Sequence record: MT446395.1
Length of the DNA: 52,087 nucleotides
From: Escherichia virus TH21
Direction: 5' to 3' (one strand)
Shown here: positions 4,871 to 30,354 of the stretch, piece by piece
How the letters are laid out: each line of letters opens with the position of its first letter
How positions within the stretch are numbered: position 1 is the first letter of the stretch
Notes under the pieces: generated by a model
The model's input: the letters and a program-made list of their open reading frames with translations, nothing else
What the model was told of the DNA's origin: nothing
The model's database searches: none
Position numbers and translations under genes: made by a program

Positions 4871-5314
4871 ATGCCACACGTAATCACTGGTCAGATCCGT
4901 AAATCACCATTCACTAAAGAAGGAAGCAACAACAACGGACGTTGGAAAATGTACGCCGTCGAACTTTCTGAGCGCATGAAGATTCGAAATCAGAATGGCG
5001 AGGATGAGACGGTTTATAGCAACTACCGCGCTACATTCTTCGCAAAAGAAAACGTTATGCAGTGGTATGATGAAGCGTTCCAGGAGGGCAAGGTTGTTTC
5101 AATTTCTGCCGATAACCTTCATCTATCGTCTCGACAGGGTAATGATGGCACTGTTTACGTCACCGCTGAAATGATCCGTCCTCAGTTACAATTCAGCCAG
5201 CGCGATCCAGCACAACAGCATGGTCAAGGTCAGCATCAACAACAGAAACAACAACCGCAGCAACCGCAGCAACCGCAGCAGCAAAGCCAATTCGACGACG
5301 ATATTCCTTTTTGA
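4871..5314 (+). CDS. ssb: single-stranded DNA-binding protein
   Basis: 147 aa from ATG 4871 (ORF track 4766 is an upstream extension); Q/P-rich linker and C-terminal DDDIPF tip. Confidence 0.8.
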   Translation: MPHVITGQIRKSPFTKEGSNNNGRWKMYAVELSERMKIRNQNGEDETVYSNYRATFFAKENVMQWYDEAFQEGKVVSISADNLHLSSRQGNDGTVYVTAEMIRPQLQFSQRDPAQQHGQGQHQQQKQQPQQPQQPQQQSQFDDDIPF

Positions 5315-5346: not shown

Positions 5347-8058
5347 TTGAATCCTACCACCACTATCACCAATCACACCAGTAAATCCAAGCAATGGCGA
5401 CGATAATCCTATTGGTGTTTGACCATTATCAAATGTGCATCCAATCATACTATCCATTATCGTTACGTTTGGTGATACCCCAGTATCCACAAAGCGACAA
5501 CCATTCCACGAAGCCCTTGGCAGGTTGCTAACTGAGCTTGATGCTGAGTTTGGAAGGGGGTAAACCCTTGTTCCGTTGAAGTTAATCCAGCAATTTTCGT
5601 TTCTACCTCCACTCGAATCCCCTAATCCAAGAAGTGTTCCACCATTAACCTCTATTGTGCAAGGTATAGATGCCCTTGCTGCGATTCCAGTGACGTTATC
5701 AAGCTTAAACCTTGGAACTACGCTTGATGAAGGGAAGGCCGCAACCTCAGTTTGAGTGTAAAGCAAATCAAAAGTTAAAGTACCTTCCCCTCCGCTCATT
5801 ATCGCCCTACCTGGTGTAAAGCCGCTGTTTATGTTTGAGATGGAGACCTCGCAGTTAAAGCCCCTGTTCTTGTTCGCTGAAGCAACTAGAGATGTGCTGT
5901 ATGATAGGTTTGTCATAACAACTGGCTCAACTTTGTTATAGCTTGTAGCATGACTAAAATTCAAGTTATCTACATTTACAACTGATGCTGGCATCGTTGA
6001 TGGGGCAACCCATAGCTTTCTGTAGTTTAACCCAGCAAGTGAGATCCAGGATTTCCTTTGTGCCGGATTGTGCAAGTGCAAAGTAACATCTCGAATAGTA
6101 ACGCTATTTGCCCATGGAACAGCAGACGTATACCCAAAGTCTGCATAGCTCTGGTCTAAAGAGCTTCCTTTAGGTATTCCAGAGTTAAAGCTAACAACAC
6201 TAATCACTGCTGGCAAAGCCTCTGTAGCGAGAGAGAATATGTTGTTTGTTGCAAGTTCAATATGTATATTGCTAACAAAAATAACTCCATCAAAGTAGTT
6301 TCCGTAATCGCCTCTGAAGTAAATAACGGAAAGCATATATATCAATGGGTTGGTTCTATCATACTGATAAAAGTCAGATAGGTAAGGTATAATCCTTGAG
6401 CAGTTAGTTACAGAGAGCCTTCCGCCACCAGTGCCCATAGTTACTCCAAATTCACTTAAAATGCAATTATCTATAGATATGTTGTATCCGTGATAGTGAA
6501 CGTCAACCCTGTTTAAAGTTGAGTTTGTAACATTTAAACCCTGTATTACATTAAATGAAATAGAACCCCACCCTTGAACGGAGTTGATGCAATCAAACTT
6601 AACATCACAGTTACCCCTACCTGAGAATACATATGTGCCATTAATAGTCTCCTGTGAGCTATTCGCCTCGGCAAAAATTCTATTGAAGTAAACCTGACTA
6701 ACGCATAAATCAAGGTAATAAACCTGCCTGATGTTAGCTAACCTTTGGTTTTGAAAATCCCTTAATGTGTGATCATTAAATACAACCTGTGACCTTGAGC
6801 ACTTGAATACAACCCCAGTAACAAACCTAGATGTGTCTATAGTTGCGTTACTTACATTTAAAATGAATGACTCGTCATCTCTTACCCTGGTACTGACATA
6901 ATTGTCATTGTTGAATGAGTGCTCAAGTGGGTATCTAAGTTCACCAAACTTCTCAATCCTGTTTATGCTTGTTTTATATTCAGTGCCTGAAGGAACTCCA
7001 CCTGAAGAACCAAGACTTGATCTGTAGCAAAAGTATTGAGATGATCCAACGGTAACTGTTTTTCTTGATAGAGATGAAAGTGAATCTATATATGTAGTCC
7101 CCTTCGTGTAATTAGCCTTATTTATCATGTTAGTAACATCAACAAGTGGATTTCCAGTGATGTTAAATGTAGGTGTGGTTAAGTATCCAGGTTCAGCGGT
7201 TGATACAGGTTTTATTACACATCCATTAAAATCAACAGATGTCTTAACCTCTATGTTTGCGTCAGCTAGCAACTGGACTTCACTAACGTTGTATAAAACA
7301 GATAGCTTGTTATCATTAGCGAATGAGTGTAAAGATCTTACCTTTTCAGTCTCATCGCCGCTACCTGTAATTCCAAAGTGTGATGAAGGAACACGCCCAT
7401 TGTTAATGTAGTTCTCAACCTCTGAAACAACACCAAGATTTTTCCTTGCTAAATCTTTATCTTGCAAGTCAGAGAAATTAAGGTCTTTACGCAGAAGATT
7501 TGATGAATCAAGTGACGCTGCGTAATCTGCTGCTTCCTGTGCTGAAGCCGCTGCTGCGTTTTTGTCTGATGATGCACTGGCTGCGCTTGCCGCTGCCGCA
7601 TTCTTATCAGCAGTTACCTGGGCTGAATCCGCTGACACTTGAGCCCCAATGGTGATAATTTCTCCATGCTGCGTGTTAATTTGGTTAACGTCATTTGAGA
7701 ATTTATCCTGATCAAAATCTTTAAAAATATCAACAGCTGTTGCAACTTCTGTTTCACGCGACTGATAGTAACGCAGAGTTTCGGCAACATCCTGAGCTAA
7801 ACCCTGAACGGTAATCCCATCGTGAGCAAGAATCGCGTAACCAGTTCCGGAAGGAACAGTTTCAGAATTAGGGTTGTAAACATTAATCTGAGTGTCGCTT
7901 ATGATTTCAGAGATGGTGTAAATCTGCACTGGCTCAGTTTTAAATACAATGGTTGCACCTACGCGAATCAGTGTAAGCGGTGCCTTCCACGTTGTCCCTA
8001 CACCAGTAACCTCGCCATTTGCGGCTAGCGACGCCGTTCCTAAGTCATAAATTGCCAT
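5344..8058 (-). CDS. tail fibre / tailspike-like protein with beta-helix-like body
   Basis: 904 aa from ATG 8058 (AGGAG 9 nt upstream); Asn/Ser/Thr/Val-rich repeats; internal DKNAAAASA duplication. Confidence 0.65.
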   Translation of the reverse strand: MAIYDLGTASLAANGEVTGVGTTWKAPLTLIRVGATIVFKTEPVQIYTISEIISDTQINVYNPNSETVPSGTGYAILAHDGITVQGLAQDVAETLRYYQSRETEVATAVDIFKDFDQDKFSNDVNQINTQHGEIITIGAQVSADSAQVTADKNAAAASAASASSDKNAAAASAQEAADYAASLDSSNLLRKDLNFSDLQDKDLARKNLGVVSEVENYINNGRVPSSHFGITGSGDETEKVRSLHSFANDNKLSVLYNVSEVQLLADANIEVKTSVDFNGCVIKPVSTAEPGYLTTPTFNITGNPLVDVTNMINKANYTKGTTYIDSLSSLSRKTVTVGSSQYFCYRSSLGSSGGVPSGTEYKTSINRIEKFGELRYPLEHSFNNDNYVSTRVRDDESFILNVSNATIDTSRFVTGVVFKCSRSQVVFNDHTLRDFQNQRLANIRQVYYLDLCVSQVYFNRIFAEANSSQETINGTYVFSGRGNCDVKFDCINSVQGWGSISFNVIQGLNVTNSTLNRVDVHYHGYNISIDNCILSEFGVTMGTGGGRLSVTNCSRIIPYLSDFYQYDRTNPLIYMLSVIYFRGDYGNYFDGVIFVSNIHIELATNNIFSLATEALPAVISVVSFNSGIPKGSSLDQSYADFGYTSAVPWANSVTIRDVTLHLHNPAQRKSWISLAGLNYRKLWVAPSTMPASVVNVDNLNFSHATSYNKVEPVVMTNLSYSTSLVASANKNRGFNCEVSISNINSGFTPGRAIMSGGEGTLTFDLLYTQTEVAAFPSSSVVPRFKLDNVTGIAARASIPCTIEVNGGTLLGLGDSSGGRNENCWINFNGTRVYPLPNSASSSVSNLPRASWNGCRFVDTGVSPNVTIMDSMIGCTFDNGQTPIGLSSPLLGFTGVIGDSGGRIQ

Positions 8059-9714: not shown

Positions 9715-11817
9715 ATGGCTATGCGCATTAAATCCATTAAAAAACAGATAGAAGAACTTGGCCCGCAAAAGATTAAAGAGATTCAGGATAAATTCACATT
9801 TGGCGACATGGTTCCTTATGAGTATCAGTGCGTAATGTATGACGAGATCGGCAAGCGCATTGCTCGCTATAAGCATCCATTCATCGTTAAAGCGTCAGTG
9901 TCGGCAGGTAAGACGATCGGCTTTGCCATGATTGCATCGCGCGTAAAAGAAATGGGCTTGTCTATGATGATACTGGCGCGTCAGGGCGATATAGTCGCTC
10001 AGGATAGTGAGGAGATCTCAAACTTCGGCGTTCCTAACTCAGTTTACTGTGCTGGCCTGAACACAAAATCAGCTTACTTCCCAATCGTTGTCGGTTCGGA
10101 AGGATCGGTTGCAAACGGTCTGTTTAAGGCGCTTGGTGATTTTACACCTATGGTGCTGGGTATTGATGAATGTCACCAGGTGGATTGGGAAGACCTTGCC
10201 GCCGCCATCGACAACGAAGAGACGATTGAAATGATGCTCACTGAAAAGGATGAGCGTGTATTCGTTGACTACCCGAAAAACAGCGAAGGTTATGTCAATG
10301 GATACCTTGATGGCGTAGAGGTTGGCGTTCAGGTGATGGATAAGCAATTGCTGATAAGCCGGAAGACTGGCGAGCCTGTTCTTGGAACAAAACGAAGCCA
10401 GTACACGATCATAATCACTGAATTGATGCGCCGCTGCAAAGAGAAGAACGGGAAGGAATTACGCATCTTCGGCATGACTGGTTCGGAGTTCAGAGGAACA
10501 GCGCCAATTGTTGTCGATAACCCTAAGCTGCCAGGATTCTGGCGTGAGCAGGTTACTAACATCGACACCAGCTACCTGATTGAGTTCGGCTCTGTTGTTC
10601 CAACAATCTTCGGAAGTGTCGGTGACGCTGGATATGATCTGGATGAGTTTAAGGCGTCCAGTCAGGATGGAACGGCTGACTTTGGTCAGAAAGAAATGAA
10701 GGCGATGGAGAAGAAAATCCATGATAACGCCAGCATGACCAAGCGAATAATGGGAATGGTAGTCGAAGAGGCGAAGAAGCGAAACGGTGTACTGATTACG
10801 TGTTCAGGCCAGCGCCATTGCAAAGAGGCGGCGAGCTATCTGCCACCTGACGCTACCTATGAGATCATCACGGAGAAGACGAACACCAAAAAACGACAAG
10901 CGATACTGGAGGCGGCGAACCGTGGCGAGATCAAATACATATTCCAGGTGGTAGCGCTAACCACTGGCGTTAACGTTCCGTTTTGGGATTTTTCGGTAAT
11001 CCTGCGCAAGATCGGCTCACTTACCCTGCTAATACAGTTACTTGGTCGAGGTATGCGATTGCTTAAGCCGTGGCAAAAAGCGATGGGAATGGTGAAAGAA
11101 GATCACCTGGTATGGGATTTCGCTGGCACGATGGATGAGCTTGGTCAGCTTTACTTCGATCCGATTCTTGAAGAGGCTCAGTACCAGCGCCGCTTTGATG
11201 GTAAGAAAGAGCCGAAAAAATGTGAACTGTGCGGAACCGAGAACAGCTTTTACGCCCGCCGCTGCATTCACAGAGACGAAAACGGCAATCGTTGTGAGTA
11301 TTTCTGGAAATCTCGAATCTGTGAAGACCAGATTGATGATCGCACTGGTGAGGTGATTGTTAAGGGATGTGGCGCTGAGAATGACGTAGTGGCGAGAATA
11401 TGCCGTTGCTGTGATGTGAGCCTGAAAGATCCCAATGATAATCTGACTGGTAAGGCTTACACCAAAAACGACTGGTGCACAGTGAATAGTTTTGAAGTAA
11501 CGCTGACACGCAATCAGACTGGTATTCTTTATCGTTACGATCTGACAGATTCAGTTGGAGTTAATTTCATCGCGTATGAAAAGTTCTTCCCGCAGTCAAC
11601 GGCACAGGTATGTCACACGATATGGAAACAGAAAGGGGTGCTGCCTCATGTGCATGACAGTAAGATCGCAAAGTTAATGGCAGCTTACAGAAGTGCTAAA
11701 ATGATTTTAAACAACGCTCACCACATAGCGCATCCAGTGCGGGTAACTCACCGCAAGAATGCAAAAGGTGAGGACATCATTTCACGTAAGGATTTTGGAT
11801 TGGACGGTAACTTATGA
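9715..11817 (+). CDS. ATP-dependent helicase, superfamily 2
   Basis: 700 aa; Walker A SAGKT; DECH box (GIDECHQV). Confidence 0.75.
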   Translation: MAMRIKSIKKQIEELGPQKIKEIQDKFTFGDMVPYEYQCVMYDEIGKRIARYKHPFIVKASVSAGKTIGFAMIASRVKEMGLSMMILARQGDIVAQDSEEISNFGVPNSVYCAGLNTKSAYFPIVVGSEGSVANGLFKALGDFTPMVLGIDECHQVDWEDLAAAIDNEETIEMMLTEKDERVFVDYPKNSEGYVNGYLDGVEVGVQVMDKQLLISRKTGEPVLGTKRSQYTIIITELMRRCKEKNGKELRIFGMTGSEFRGTAPIVVDNPKLPGFWREQVTNIDTSYLIEFGSVVPTIFGSVGDAGYDLDEFKASSQDGTADFGQKEMKAMEKKIHDNASMTKRIMGMVVEEAKKRNGVLITCSGQRHCKEAASYLPPDATYEIITEKTNTKKRQAILEAANRGEIKYIFQVVALTTGVNVPFWDFSVILRKIGSLTLLIQLLGRGMRLLKPWQKAMGMVKEDHLVWDFAGTMDELGQLYFDPILEEAQYQRRFDGKKEPKKCELCGTENSFYARRCIHRDENGNRCEYFWKSRICEDQIDDRTGEVIVKGCGAENDVVARICRCCDVSLKDPNDNLTGKAYTKNDWCTVNSFEVTLTRNQTGILYRYDLTDSVGVNFIAYEKFFPQSTAQVCHTIWKQKGVLPHVHDSKIAKLMAAYRSAKMILNNAHHIAHPVRVTHRKNAKGEDIISRKDFGLDGNL

Positions 11818-16777: not shown

Positions 16778-17184
16778 GTTGTCTAAATTTACAGCGCGCT
16801 TTGGTTATCGGCTTCGTAGTGTGGGCCTTGTTCGTGTTATCAGGTTGTTCGGCAACATCTGCGCTGACTGGTTTAATTGGCAGCAAGCCAGAAATTAGCG
16901 CGCAGGCTGGGGCCGAGAACGTGAAGCAAACGGTAGGCGTTACCGGAAAGGTGGATAAGTCAAACGACAACGACACCACTATCAAAGATTCAAAGGTAGG
17001 AAAGGTTGATACGTCAAACGGGAAGTCTGTCAGTACATCAAGCATCAAGGCTGACACTATCATCGCGGATAAGATTGAGATCAGGAATGACTCAAAAGGT
17101 AATCTGATTTCTGGACTGGTATTCCTGTTCATCGGTATTCTGATGGTGATTTTCTATCTATGGCTGGAACGACGCAAAAAATAA
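16774..17184 (+). CDS. unimolecular spanin-like protein
   Basis: 136 aa; N-terminal lipoprotein signal (LSGC) and C-terminal transmembrane helix, as in T1 gp11-type u-spanin. Confidence 0.65.
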
Positions 17185-17186
17185 AA

Positions 17187-17209
17187 GGAGCCGAAAGGCT
17201 CCTTTTTTT
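17187..17209. terminator. bidirectional terminator between lysis cassette and minus-strand accessory operon
   Basis: hairpin ggagcc-gaaa-ggctcc with T-run on both strands. Confidence 0.7.
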
Positions 17210-17724: not shown

Positions 17725-19308
17725 TTACCCCAGCAGTCGCGGATTAATGTAAATTTTATCACCAATCAGGCACGTATAGTTTTTCTCATCCAGCATAGGG
17801 ATCAGATGGTCTTTGATGCGAGTCATTACACCAGCCTGGCCCTCGAATGGCTTAACCTTACGCGCCGCTTCATATAGGGATCGGACACCTACAACGCCTT
17901 TCCCGTTCTTGCCTTGCTTGATCAGGATGTCAATAAGCTTGTTCATCTCCGCATGGTCGCCAGCGTGACCAGCAGCGTTTGCAGATGACAGATAAGTTTT
18001 ACTCAGTTCCTGGAACATAATTACAGCTTCTTGCATTGTATCAAGCTCAATCTCTCTGGACTTCTGCGGACTTCCGCCATTGGGATTGAACCAGTTACGC
18101 ACAGTGTGAAGAACCGCCGCGATCCTGATGGCCTGCTTATCAAACTTACCAAGCGCGCCGCGAAGCATTGTGTGTGAATACTTCCCGCCGTCCGCAAGGT
18201 GAGGTTCCATATCCTGACGCGCACGGTTGAGATATTTCATCGCCGACGTGCTCACTGTCAGGTTGACTTCGTGTTCGCTCATGATCTCATGGACCAGACG
18301 GAAGTAGTCCGCCTTGAGTCCGCCATCAATCGGCTCATATGTTGATTCGCCTTTTTCGTCAACGAATACACGCTCGCCAAGGAATGACTTCTCACGCACA
18401 AGCAAGAAACGTTCTGACACACCGATACCACGCGCACCAGCATTCATGATCGCGTTGATTGTTTCATCCTGTGCAATTACAGAGATGCAACCCATAGCGA
18501 TAAAGCTCATGTTATTGTCTGCGTTCGCACGCGCGATAGATACGTTACCAGCATCCCATGCCTTAAGCACAAGTTCGCTGTTCGTTTTCTTTGAGCCGTC
18601 ACCATAGGTCATGCCTAACAGTGAGTTTACGCTCGTTGCTTCATCCGAGATCACAGAGAAGTTCCCCTGGCGGTTGTTGATTCGCGCCAGACCTTCCGGC
18701 GTGGTGTCGGATACGGGGAATACGATGTCACAAAGGCGTTCCAGTTTTTCTTCCAGTTCTTCTTTTTCCTCAAACAGTGCCGCCATGTCGGACGGTGATT
18801 TTTCCTGCTTCATCTCCTTGGATAGAGCAGATAGTTTAGCCATAATCTTCTTGCGGTCGCGCTTTCGGATCTCGTTGAGTCGTTCAGTCTCTGCGATCAT
18901 CGGGGCCAGCGAAAGTGAGTTAATGGCTGATTTACCTGTCGATGGTGGCTGACTGGTTACGACGTAAAGCGCGGTCGGCTGTTGTGTTCCGTGATACTCA
19001 ACCGTAAAGCGGCCCAGCATGGCGGCTGATATGCATCCGAGGAAATGCATGTAAGCGGACGACTCGGGGAACTGAACTGAACGAGCGGCATTGCTTGACA
19101 GCTTACCAACGACATCATAATCGTTACCAAGTGAGATAACCGGATATTTGTCACCGCCCGAGTCGATTTCTGTTGGTGCTTTCCAGAACGACTGGCTTTG
19201 CCTGTACCCGTTCGCATTGATGGCAACGCGCAGGGGCGGCAGGTTATCGGCGGCGGCCACAGCCATAACCTGATCGATAGACAATTTATCTTCGTTAAAA
19301 TCAAACAT
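17725..19308 (-). CDS. P-loop NTPase, possibly VirE/DUF3987-like primase-associated helicase
   Basis: 527 aa from ATG 19308 (AAGGAG 7 nt upstream); Walker A-like SQPPSTGKS; N- and C-terminal segments recur in 24573..25127. Confidence 0.45.
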   Translation of the reverse strand: MFDFNEDKLSIDQVMAVAAADNLPPLRVAINANGYRQSQSFWKAPTEIDSGGDKYPVISLGNDYDVVGKLSSNAARSVQFPESSAYMHFLGCISAAMLGRFTVEYHGTQQPTALYVVTSQPPSTGKSAINSLSLAPMIAETERLNEIRKRDRKKIMAKLSALSKEMKQEKSPSDMAALFEEKEELEEKLERLCDIVFPVSDTTPEGLARINNRQGNFSVISDEATSVNSLLGMTYGDGSKKTNSELVLKAWDAGNVSIARANADNNMSFIAMGCISVIAQDETINAIMNAGARGIGVSERFLLVREKSFLGERVFVDEKGESTYEPIDGGLKADYFRLVHEIMSEHEVNLTVSTSAMKYLNRARQDMEPHLADGGKYSHTMLRGALGKFDKQAIRIAAVLHTVRNWFNPNGGSPQKSREIELDTMQEAVIMFQELSKTYLSSANAAGHAGDHAEMNKLIDILIKQGKNGKGVVGVRSLYEAARKVKPFEGQAGVMTRIKDHLIPMLDEKNYTCLIGDKIYINPRLLG

Positions 19309-19378
19309 TAAAAAACTCCTTAGTTGGTGCGCTAATGTTAACGCACCTATGGTAAAACCGCTTGCCAAAAAATGCTAC

Positions 19379-20897: not shown

Positions 20898-21113
20898 TTA
20901 GAACGGGATTCCGTCATCAAATTTTAAGCGGTAGTCGAAATCATCCCCGATTCCGTCTACTGACTGGTTGCTTTCGCTTTCCAGATCCATATCCATAACG
21001 CCCAATGCGTCATCGAGTTCGATGCATCCGTAAGCAACCTTGAGCGCCCACTCTTCATTGAGTCCGGCCTCAAGTGCCGCGCGGTGGCGGCTCCAGAAAT
21101 TATCTTGATGCAC
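20898..21113 (-). CDS. small acidic protein ending in an SSB-like C-terminal tip (KFDDGIPF)
   Basis: 71 aa; GTG start with GGAG 6 nt upstream; C-terminus resembles the DDDIPF tip of SSB. Confidence 0.5.
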   Translation of the reverse strand: MHQDNFWSRHRAALEAGLNEEWALKVAYGCIELDDALGVMDMDLESESNQSVDGIGDDFDYRLKFDDGIPF

Positions 21114-21115
21114 TG

Positions 21116-21340
21116 TTAGCTCCAGGAATTGATGTAAAGTGAGTTATCATTTAACAGGTTGACCATCTCAGCACGGGTAAGGCTACGGATGATTGATCCT
21201 GGATGAGTGCCAACAACGTAGCGGTCGAACTCACGGCGCGTAATAGTGATTTGGCTTACGCCTGCGGCGCGGTCCAGCTTGACGATTGCACGGCCTTTTG
21301 CTTCGATGTGTGCTACTACGTTCTGAGCTTTAACTGACAT
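21116..21340 (-). CDS. hypothetical protein
   Basis: 74 aa; RBS AGAGGAAG; downstream of cassette copy. Confidence 0.45.
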   Translation of the reverse strand: MSVKAQNVVAHIEAKGRAIVKLDRAAGVSQITITRREFDRYVVGTHPGSIIRSLTRAEMVNLLNDNSLYINSWS

Positions 21341-23221: not shown

Positions 23222-23404
23222 TTACATGTGTTTCAGGTAGAAAGCGATTTCACGGATGTTGTCTTCTGGATGAGCCTTCACGACTACCGCGAACATCTTC
23301 TCAACCAGCGCCTTGGTGCTCTCAGGGTTATAACCTTCCTGGACCAGCAGGGCAATAGTGTTTTCGATGGTAACTGGTGAGTTCTTGTTGATGCGCTTAG
23401 CCAT
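23222..23404 (-). CDS. hypothetical protein, first gene of minus-strand accessory operon
   Basis: 60 aa; RBS AAAGGAA; leader ATCGAAACGACAC. Confidence 0.4.
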   Translation of the reverse strand: MAKRINKNSPVTIENTIALLVQEGYNPESTKALVEKMFAVVVKAHPEDNIREIAFYLKHM

Positions 23405-23468
23405 GATGATTTCCTTTAGTGCGTGTCGTTTCGATTAGGTAATAATAGCGAATCACTCCTGATCGGTC

Positions 23469-23485
23469 ATTAGCAAAAAGTGCTA
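23469..23485 (-). promoter_or_regulatory. cassette palindrome TAGCACTTTTTGCTAAT at the head of the minus-strand operon
   Basis: followed by TATTAT and the conserved leader. Confidence 0.45.
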
Positions 23486-23499
23486 TTCGTTCGATTTAT

Positions 23500-23625
23500 G
23501 GATTGTTGCAGCTATTGCAATGATTCACTTCACTATTGCACATATAGCAATATTGCATCGTTTGCAATGATGTTTTCGATTGTTGCGAATTGAGCAATGA
23601 TTCATTGATGGGTGGAATGATGGGG
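23500..23625. repeat. iteron-like cluster of TTGCAATGAT / TTGCA repeats
   Basis: TTGCAATGAT at 23515 and 23562, GCAATGAT at 23594, GGAATGATG at 23614; inverted repeat TATTGC-N7-GCAATA near 23535. Confidence 0.45.
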
Positions 23626-23681
23626 TGAGATCTGATCCCCGATCGCCTGGTAGGATTTTCCCGCCACACGTTTCATCTATT

Positions 23682-23830
23682 TACACGTAACCGAAGTAGC
23701 ACGGTGTAAGCCACACCCATATCGTTACGCGGGTTACGCGCAGCTACGCCCTGACTTACGCCATAAGTCCTTAATATATATATATATCTTCTTTCTATTA
23801 TTATTATTATTATTAATATTATTGTATGTA
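23682..23830. repeat. AT-rich repeat segment paralogous to 2629..2790, with (AT)7 and (TTA)6 microsatellites
   Basis: tacacgtaaccgaagtagcacggtgta vs tacatgtaaccgatgtaactcggtgta; cgcgcagYtacgcc shared; microsatellites in both copies. Confidence 0.55.
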
Positions 23831-24033
23831 AGTCGTGTAACTGGGGTGCTGGAGTTATCTATATGTTTTTTCCTATCAGGGTATATATTTGCTATTTATG
23901 GACGCATTTCGCCAGTACGGGGCCATGACATCAATTTGCCTCGTTACAGCCACGACACCAAACTACATTGAGCTATAGCTGGGCTGTGATACCTTTTCGC
24001 GTAACCACCCCCGAAAGTTACCAAAAATTACAC

Positions 24034-24062
24034 TTGACTACATGTGTAAGTCGGGATACGAT
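24034..24062 (+). promoter_or_regulatory. sigma70-type promoter (TTGACT-N17-TACGAT) for the plus-strand accessory operon
   Basis: hexamers read directly; ATG at 24094 after GAGAGGAG. Confidence 0.5.
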
Positions 24063-24093
24063 TAGCTCAACTTAAACGAGAGGAGTTATAAAG

Positions 24094-24573
24094 ATGAAAG
24101 AGCAAGTAACACTAGGGCAGGTGATTCGTGAGATGGCAAAGGCAGCACTCAAGTCCGAGGATAAGCAATTCAGCGTGCCACTAAGTAAGATTGCAAGCAT
24201 TATCGGAGTCGATGGCGATAACATTCCAAAGCTAAAGAGTTCATACATCTACAACACGACAGCCCGCATGACTGAGCTAAGGGATGTTGGATTGAAAGCG
24301 ACTCACTCCTATGACGACGACGAGGGTGATAGCGAGTTCGGTGAATCAACCCTGGCAGGTGATAGAAGACTGGTTATCAAGCTGGTACCTGGCACGGCGA
24401 ACATTGGAATCAGAAAGAAGACCAATAACGCGATAAAGGAAGAGGCAATCACCGAGTTCAAGGCGAGAATTTCAAAGGTTATGCCAGACATTTCAGAGTA
24501 TGAAGGAGAGGCGCTTGCCGCTGCAATGAAGGCAATTAAAGATTACCGCTCAATCATTGAGGAGATTAAATAA
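24094..24573 (+). CDS. hypothetical protein, first gene of plus-strand accessory operon
   Basis: 159 aa; strong RBS. Confidence 0.5.
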   Translation: MKEQVTLGQVIREMAKAALKSEDKQFSVPLSKIASIIGVDGDNIPKLKSSYIYNTTARMTELRDVGLKATHSYDDDEGDSEFGESTLAGDRRLVIKLVPGTANIGIRKKTNNAIKEEAITEFKARISKVMPDISEYEGEALAAAMKAIKDYRSIIEEIK

Positions 24574-29733: not shown

Positions 29734-30354
29734 ATGTCAAAGATTATCATTCTCAACGGTCCAGCTTCGGTTGGTAAAGACACGATTGGCAACGCCCTAG
29801 CAGCAGATTACAACTGCATCCCGACCAGCTTCAAGCGTCCGATGTTTGAGATTGCAGCATCCATCCTTGGGGCCAGGGCTTTTTCAAAGTTCATCACAGC
29901 ATACGACGACCGCGATCAGAAAGAGATGCCTCAGAGCTTCCTTGGTGGCAAGACATGCCGCGAGTTCATGATCTGGATTAGCGAGTCTGTGGTAAAGCCG
30001 CTATTTGGCAACCAGCAATTCGGAAAGCTGATGAGCGAACATATCAAGCTGTGTGACGAAGGATTCTGTTTTGTGTGTACTGATGGCGGCTTCCCTGATG
30101 AAGTGATCAGGCTCGTTGAAGATGGTCACGATGTTACCCTGGTCCGCTTGTTCATGGATGGCAAGACTTTCGCGGGAGATAGCCGTGATTACATCCGCAT
30201 CAAGCAATCGCACTTCCCTGATTACAAGAAATATAACGAGCATGATGTGCATCTGGTAAATGGTGATGTTGATGATGGCGTCCTTAAAGTAGTTCGCGCT
30301 TGCTTGGTTAGTCCTTCAATGGATGATGATTGGGCAGACGATATTCCTTGGTAA
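29734..30354 (+). CDS. deoxynucleoside monophosphate kinase with acidic SSB-tip-like C-terminus
   Basis: 206 aa; P-loop GPASVGKDT; C-terminus DDDWADDIPW. Confidence 0.6.
   Translation: MSKIIILNGPASVGKDTIGNALAADYNCIPTSFKRPMFEIAASILGARAFSKFITAYDDRDQKEMPQSFLGGKTCREFMIWISESVVKPLFGNQQFGKLMSEHIKLCDEGFCFVCTDGGFPDEVIRLVEDGHDVTLVRLFMDGKTFAGDSRDYIRIKQSHFPDYKKYNEHDVHLVNGDVDDGVLKVVRACLVSPSMDDDWADDIPW

Follow-up and report, generated by a model that had tools for sequence, protein, structure and literature searches.

A small protein of T1-like phages ends in an SSB-like C-terminal tip and is a candidate ligand of the bacterial SSB hub

Why does a phage protein of 71 aa that is not an SSB end like one? 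Genome maintenance in bacteria is organised around the C-terminal tip of SSB as its hub, and this tip is an antibiotic target for which IPF mimetics are being designed. The question is raised by a gene of Escherichia virus TH21 (MT446395.1), whose 52,087 nt sequence was analysed at its full length and is referred to here as the window. The window is from a T1-like siphovirus of the Drexlerviridae, and the closest records are those of the Escherichia phages TH30, ESCO41 and CJ19. It appears to represent a complete genome (approximately 52 kb) assembled in circularly permuted form. A divergent non-coding region at 23404-24094 lies between a minus-strand block of genes (to 17200) and a plus-strand block (from 24094); from its position, it may be the counterpart of the genome ends on the linear T1 map.

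The first-pass annotation placed the gene at 20898-21113. These coordinates are right; the strand needed correcting to minus, and a plus-strand reading of the interval is ruled out because it is full of stop codons. The true ORF on the minus strand has 71 codons and a GTG start. Its translation, MHQDNFWSRHRAALEAGLNEEWALKVAYGCIELDDALGVMDMDLESESNQSVDGIGDDFDYRLKFDDGIPF, confirms the description of an Asp/Glu-rich protein with the end FDDGIPF, preceded by a Lys (KFDDGIPF). There are 17 Asp/Glu (24%) versus 5 Lys/Arg, and the pI is approximately 4.05. The stop codon of the gene upstream is at 21116-21118, the GTG start follows 2 nt further on, and the two genes are in tight operon coupling. The features discussed below are listed in Table 1.

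Table 1. Position of the 71-aa gene, its parts and other relevant features of the window
Feature	Position	Strand	Remarks
CDS of the 71-aa protein	20898..21113	-	GTG start; stop codon 20898-20900; phrog_9085/9323; T1 ST6 ortholog
GGAG ribosome-binding site of the 71-aa gene	21120..21123	-	6 nt before GTG
Three-helix N-terminal domain with ALG.MD.D.E motif, residues 5-45	20979..21101	-	alignment, AlphaFold2
Variable acidic linker, predicted unstructured, residues 46-64	20922..20978	-	CxC...CxxC knuckle here in most relatives
SSB-Ct-like tip FDDGIPF, residues 65-71	20901..20921	-	IPF part kept family-wide as hydrophobic-Pro-Phe/Trp
DUF3987 helicase (phrog_2373)	17725..19368	-	last large gene of the block that holds the 71-aa gene
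Strong terminator-like hairpin, 10-bp stem and T run	17183..17206	-	closes the minus-strand block
Phage SSB (phrog_44)	4871..5314	+	tip FDDDIPF at 5291-5311, identical to the host-type SSB-Ct
dNMP kinase / P-loop NTPase	29734..30354	+	acidic tail MDDDWADDIPW at 30319-30351

The 71-aa gene is part of a single minus-strand block that runs from approximately 23404 to the terminator at 17206-17183 and is syntenic with ST1-ST10 of phage T1, which fits the earlier assignment to a presumably early accessory operon. In addition to approximately ten small genes of unknown function, the block encodes a DNA methyltransferase (phrog_757), located two genes downstream of the 71-aa gene, and the DUF3987 helicase. 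Members of the family are present in T1 (Tunavirinae), in Stevie_ev116 (Tlsvirus) and in the clade of the window. An unfiltered HMM search (--max) found no family member in Klebsiella phage KLPN1 (Webervirus). KLPN1 nevertheless shares the genes for replication and recombination, namely those of SSB, Erf, exonuclease, primase and DUF3987 helicase, which makes the 71-aa gene accessory rather than core.

The phage also has an SSB of its own. It was correctly described as ending in FDDDIPF: its sequence ends in ...QQQSQFDDDIPF (QFDDDIPF), it matches phrog_44 with E=3.8e-26, and its gene comes after those for a PDDEXK exonuclease and an Erf annealing protein. As replication genes, the examined part of the window showed those for helicase, primase, SSB, Erf and exonuclease; the annotation of T1 lists no DNA polymerase. 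The SSB ends in FDDDIPF in the window and in T1, in PPMDFDDDIPF in Stevie_ev116 and in GMDFDDDIPF in KLPN1. With this tip on the phage SSB in three genera, host-type tip readers are therefore in play during infection.

The 71-aa protein matches phrog_9085 over its full length (E=1.2e-35, residues 1-71 against profile positions 1-69 of 69) and phrog_9323 with E=5.1e-23. Neither has a functional annotation. The syntenic ortholog in T1 is ST6 (YP_003939.1), which is 55% identical and ends in DVDDYIPW. A tblastn search with the 71-aa protein gave matches in 455 phage records, T1 included; a separate search for related loci in viral contigs gave only 3. In the tblastn hits for this protein and for the dNMP kinase of the window, approximately 20-39 records (e.g. 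MG065680.1, A113, 49.9 kb) are named as Campylobacter phages and carry these T1-type genes at coliphage-level identity, and their host assignment or purity looks doubtful.

Searching Pfam with the 71-aa protein and 44 relatives gave only noise (E of 0.019 or worse), and PDB searches with the 71-aa protein, by sequence profile and by Foldseek, gave nothing below E=1. Foldseek matches in BFVD were uncharacterised relatives only. The three-helix domain has a UBA-like look, which was rejected as not significant (hHR23A chain at rank 16, E=5.8). None of the SSB families in Pfam and PHROGs was matched by the 71-aa protein, and its AlphaFold2 models consist of three short helices with no strands. Lacking an OB fold, it does not count as an SSB.

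How close, then, is the tip to that of a true SSB? The C-terminal octapeptide of E. coli SSB (SSB-Ct) has a proximal segment, DFDD, and a distal one, DIPF, of which IPF is required; the crystal structures with ExoI and RecO show order in IPF or DIPF only, and both segments add affinity, with an IC50 of approximately 4.5 uM for the octapeptide versus 45-100 uM for DIPF alone (PMC10143822). The SSB-Ct peptide binds ExoI with a Kd of 98 nM and Red-beta with a Kd of 10.6 uM, affinities of 6 uM and 2.7 uM are quoted for RecQ and Pol III, respectively, and the change F177A, in the terminal Phe, abolishes binding (PMC6393309).

The 71-aa protein has an acidic tail with a terminal aromatic residue (...DDFDYRLKFDDGIPF). 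Its KFDD-GIPF is identical to DFDD-DIPF at 6 of 8 positions, with both segments matched. At the extreme C-terminus, Phe is the last residue and is joined by Pro at -2 and Ile at -3; in this clade the three are preceded by Asp-Asp-Gly at -6 to -4 (two of three acids) and Phe at -7. In the 71-aa protein itself, as in bacterial SSBs, the tip follows a segment predicted to be unstructured. Unlike bacterial SSBs, the protein has neither an OB fold nor any domain for ssDNA binding, it carries Gly in place of the third Asp, and its linker spans no more than approximately 20 residues; in relatives, the acidic context gives way to a Cys4 knuckle or to RCFPF, and some end in Trp.

To judge chance, all six frames of the window were divided at their stops, which gave 926 segments of 30 aa or more. 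The pattern [ILVMF]P[FWY] closes only three of these, all of them real genes: the SSB, the 71-aa protein and a dNMP kinase, each with Asp-Asp directly ahead of the tip. A profile search of 1.84 billion representatives at 50% identity gave 38 proteins, 26 of them small and full-length. All 26 end in hydrophobic-Pro(Ser)-Phe/Trp, and so do 129 of the 132 full-length clusters at 90% identity: IPF in 71, FPF in 41, IPFW in seven, IPW in five, and LPF, VPF, EPF and ISF once each. The three tipless clusters end in ...CDCGYWEA/WDV/EVK. When 44 sequences with divergence down to approximately 31% identity were aligned, the mean frequency of the top residue was 0.86 in the last three columns, 0.65 over residues 5-45 and 0.33 in the linker. 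The tip is genuine and subject to strong purifying selection, and its conservation is the decisive evidence against an origin by chance.

The tip codons are TTT GAT GAC GGA ATC CCG TTC in the 71-aa gene versus TTC GAC GAC GAT ATT CCT TTT in the SSB gene. A recent DNA copy of the SSB tail is ruled out by these differences at synonymous sites, and the likeness is therefore maintained at the protein level. Co-variation between the two tips was uninformative, as the SSB tip is constant in T1, Stevie_ev116, KLPN1 and the window while that of the small protein varies. In the C-terminal peptide of FtsZ, DIPAF is internal and not terminal, and the beta-clamp motif is QL.LF. Mimicry of the FtsZ peptide, a beta-clamp motif and a degron are unlikely readings of the tip.

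It should be noted that the full F-D-D-x-I-P-F likeness is restricted to the clade of the window; what the family as a whole retains is the last two or three residues only. The segment between the N-terminal domain and the tip is of three kinds. The first is a Cys-free acidic tail, found in the clade of the 71-aa protein (...KFDDGIPF) and in T1 (...DDYIPW). The second is a Cys4 knuckle abutting the tip (DCGCRGS..C..CIPF), found in 16 of the 26 representatives. The third, of the tonnikala/tunus type, is DCGC.FDP.C[AKP]RCFPF, and is net positive beside the tip. Most family members have a CxC-x6-8-CxxC knuckle just before IPF or FPF, e.g. DCGCRGSAYCNECIPF (relatives P0039-P0058 and P0088-P0139), and this knuckle is presumably zinc-binding. 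The clade of the 71-aa protein and T1 appear to have swapped the knuckle for the Cys-free acidic tail and kept the tip. Since the tip outlasts full exchange of the segment before it, we argue that it has a function of its own.

That function may not involve SSB partners. A distinct, possibly phage-specific pocket might read the tip, or the tip might be a structural part of a Cys4 knuckle mini-domain, and the likeness of FDDGIPF to SSB-Ct would then be a secondary convergence without shared partners. Only x-P-[FW] is kept across the family, the ends RCFPF, CIPF and IPFW are not SSB-like in charge or context, and three clusters have swapped the tip for another end, all of which would agree with such a reading. 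However, in the 71-aa clade and in T1 an acidic, Cys-free tail fully takes the place of the knuckle and the tip survives, which makes it more than a piece of the knuckle fold. The net charge of the last 8 residues is negative in 23 of the 26 representatives (with Arg at -5, the FPF subfamily lacks an acid there), and the match to SSB-Ct in this clade reaches the proximal Phe and the two Asp. We consider this explanation quite improbable.

The rest of the protein also bears on what the tip may do. Two AlphaFold2 runs, on alignments with 14 and 44 relatives, both gave short helices at residues ~6-15, 20-28 and 33-44 with pLDDT of ~80, and unstructured residues 45-71 with pLDDT of ~45-56. The motif of the N-terminal domain is AGLN.EWA.KVA....L..ALG.MD.D.ES; G17, V26, A36, L37, G38, M40 and E45 are invariant in the alignment of 44 sequences. 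By profile search and by Foldseek against BFVD, the three-helix domain (AGLN.EWA.KVA...L..ALGDMDMD.E) was also found inside proteins of 143-309 aa from unrelated phages, without the tip. These tipless proteins are encoded by the Salmonella phages ViI and PhiSH19, Erwinia phage phiEa2809 and Pantoea phage LIET2, and further carriers are the relatives P0069, P0071, P0080, P0084, P0086 and P0087. A 69-kb viral contig (L005) encodes a 168-aa protein with the domain at 9827-10333 on the plus strand. Judging from these architectures, the N-terminal helical domain is an independent module.

The domain gene of contig L005 adjoins a probable DNA ligase gene and MazG-like genes, as read from the translations. 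Beside the ligase-like gene, at 6617-7495 on the plus strand, the contig encodes a 292-aa protein with an acidic tail and a terminal Phe (...DKPKEAEGF), which recalls the tails of gp2.5-type SSBs.

The first-pass annotation had taken the protein for one that has only the acidic tail, and had proposed that it acts as a decoy or as an adaptor. The first part is contradicted by the N-terminal domain (residues 5-45), which is the best-conserved part and occurs in tipless phage proteins as well. With this domain conserved, a bare decoy is therefore unlikely, and a two-part binder, either a specific inhibitor or an adaptor, fits better. Docking into an SSB-tip-reading pocket would be the most economical reading of the tip match and its conservation.

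Two explanations that need no such pocket were weighed. In one, the protein is an early-region product that mimics DNA generically by its acidity or counters restriction, following the logic of Ocr and ArdA. Its pI and Asp/Glu content are suggestive of this, as is its small gene in an accessory block, two genes upstream of a DNA methyltransferase. However, the acidic linker is the least conserved part of the protein, the helical domain and the tip being the conserved features. No similar family was found in Pfam or in PDB, the latter searched by sequence and by Foldseek. This is the least probable of the explanations considered here. In the other, the acidic tail with its aromatic end acts in trans on the ssDNA cleft of the phage or host SSB, and modulates the binding of SSB to DNA. 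There is a precedent in cis, the C-peptide of E. coli SSB being documented to bind intramolecularly to its own OB domain (PMC3936761). Contacts of this kind are weak, however, and neither the non-acidic nor the Zn-knuckle subfamily agrees with the model, which would also leave the conserved N-terminal domain without a role; we regard an action in trans as highly improbable.

Based on the tip and its conservation, we suggest that the 71-aa protein probably plugs into the SSB partner network. The explanation that we rank first, and favour only tentatively, is that it is a two-module ligand of the SSB hub that selectively and competitively blocks a harmful host SSB partner. In brief, the terminal Phe and its carboxylate would insert into the hydrophobic pocket and basic lip that read DDDIPF, and the N-terminal domain would provide a second contact that sets which partner is bound. 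A partner whose pocket is occupied by the 71-aa protein would be uncoupled from SSB-coated ssDNA, because the protein has no DNA-binding fold. The likeliest outcome would be that a host SSB partner harmful to the DNA intermediates of the phage is blocked. As a guess at this partner, ExoI (SbcB) would be the prime candidate: its affinity for the tip is exceptional, and it degrades the 3' ssDNA tails that the Exo/Erf/SSB module of the phage needs.

Several observations would agree with a two-module ligand. The tip is conserved down to approximately 31% identity while the linker varies freely, and KFDDGIPF matches both of the segments that contribute to the binding of ExoI and RecO. In the models, the N-terminal domain is predicted with a pLDDT of ~80 and the tail with one of only ~45-56. 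The gene is found among small accessory genes upstream of the helicase, and the family is missing in KLPN1. By analogy, a link between SbcB and a phage protein ending in FDDDIPF has been published for another system. This is the case of Bas52_0087, an SSB-like phage protein that ends in FDDDIPF and triggers DRT10, restrained by host SbcB/ExoI (bioRxiv 10.64898/2026.04.29.721553). It resembles the 71-aa protein in its host-type tip and in the functional link to SbcB/ExoI. Unlike the 71-aa protein, it has two OB folds, a true SSB-like architecture and more than 350 aa, and the two are unrelated in sequence.

Other observations are harder to reconcile with a ligand of the SSB hub. The [AKP]RCFPF subfamily is net positive by the tip, and a Cys4 knuckle abutting IPF is unlike the long disordered acidic tail of an SSB. 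T1 and some relatives end in IPW, and the IPFW end of seven clusters buries the Phe carboxylate. A single tail of micromolar affinity would compete poorly with tetrameric SSB, unless the N-terminal domain adds affinity or oligomerises. Finally, other tip-bearing proteins that are not SSBs, a kinase and helicases, look recruited, which speaks against an inhibitor and in favour of an adaptor.

The kinase is encoded in the window itself. This dNMP kinase ends in ...SPSMDDDWADDIPW, the third SSB-like tip in the window, and its homologs are annotated as deoxynucleoside monophosphate kinase in many records. The acidic tail was found in approximately 80 of the 120 kinase clusters listed (clustered at 90% identity), with ends such as ..DDIPW, ..DGLPW and ..DEIPW; the clusters with the tail span 52-100% identity. 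It is absent from T1 ST62 and from other homologs at approximately 50% identity. From the distribution of the tail, the kinase may be tethered to the readers of SSB tips, whatever these are.

Scanning viral contigs for exact matches to Asp-Asp-Ile-Pro-Trp followed by a stop gave at least 120 stretches (L008-L127), with at least 24 clusters of proteins that end in DDIPW in frame. Many are SSBs (bacterial-type, gp32-like and PHROG SSB families). Carriers that are not SSBs include a T7 gp4-like primase-helicase (DnaB_C and Toprim), an SF2 helicase (ResIII and Helicase_C), an AAA_5 ATPase, Drexlerviridae kinases and several families of unknown function (phrog_2402, 862, 3284 and 21342). Examples of DDIPW proteins are found in L060 (587 aa), L089 (573 aa), L105 (399 aa) and L010 (309 aa). 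With DDIPW on helicases, an ATPase and kinases, an SSB-like tip on DNA-metabolism proteins that are not SSBs is thus recurrent in phages, and from these sequences it looks like a portable tag.

These carriers lend weight to the explanation that we rank second, in which the 71-aa protein is a recruiting adaptor. The N-terminal domain would bind a phage or host factor, and the tip would tether this factor to a hub that reads DDxIP[FW]. The hub would be the same for the SSB and the dNMP kinase, and candidates are the phage helicase, primase or Erf, or the chi subunit of host Pol III. Three proteins of one genome carry the tip. A tail on an enzyme, as in approximately 80 of the kinase clusters listed, is sensible only as a recruitment tag, and DDIPW is found on the primase-helicase, the SF2 helicase and the AAA_5 ATPase of viral contigs. 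The operon of the 71-aa gene ends with the DUF3987 helicase, and the N-terminal domain is an independent module found in other proteins. In phage T7, moreover, the tail of the helicase (DTDF) and that of the gp2.5 SSB share the same docking site on the polymerase (PMC12339929). On the other hand, KLPN1 has no family member yet the same replication genes, so the protein is not a core part of the replisome; no cargo is known for the N-terminal domain; and T1 has the small protein together with a kinase that lacks the tip, so the two are uncoupled. On balance, we find the adaptor unlikely.

The parallel with T7 is only partial. Like T7 gp4, the 71-aa protein is a phage protein other than an SSB whose acidic, aromatic-ended tail is akin to that of the phage SSB. 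The T7 tails end in DF and bind the polymerase of the phage itself (gp5), whereas T1-type phages have no annotated DNA polymerase. Further, the T1-type tips copy the motif of the host SSB, and their carrier here, unlike gp4, has 71 aa and no enzymatic domains. Closer in logic to the two-module ligand are the synthetic SSB-Ct mimetics, soluble IPF ligands that compete for the pockets of ExoI, RecO, DnaG and PriA (PMC10143822, PMC5872125). They are man-made; the 71-aa protein would be natural and genetically encoded, with an added specificity domain.

Taken together with the kinase, the tip on the 71-aa protein can be read as part of a tip code of T1-like phages, by which the SSB, the dNMP kinase and the 71-aa protein would all be tagged with the host SSB docking peptide (a C-terminal hydrophobic-Pro-Phe/Trp). 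The 71-aa family would then be a natural SSB-Ct mimetic whose helical domain selects one arm of the SSB interactome, e.g. ExoI. We put this forward as a speculation that we ourselves find somewhat doubtful. In the literature, we found no description of the 71-aa family, of a phage decoy built on the SSB tip or of a stand-alone phage protein of this kind; the closest published case is the unrelated, SSB-like trigger of DRT10.

If the tip code is true, the 71-aa family would be the first viral protein to work as a stand-alone antagonist of the SSB hub or as an adaptor for it. A phage protein that uses the SSB peptide without DNA binding would show viral rewiring or disarming of this hub, and the family would supply a natural scaffold, a specificity domain with a tip, for selective inhibitors. 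Many phages have acidic ...DDIP[FW] tails on their kinases, primase-helicases, SF2 helicases or AAA ATPases, which suggests that tip-tagging may be a general, unremarked way to assemble replication factories. For the Drexlerviridae, a function would be assigned to an uncharacterised family present in hundreds of genomes, that of the classical phage T1 included.
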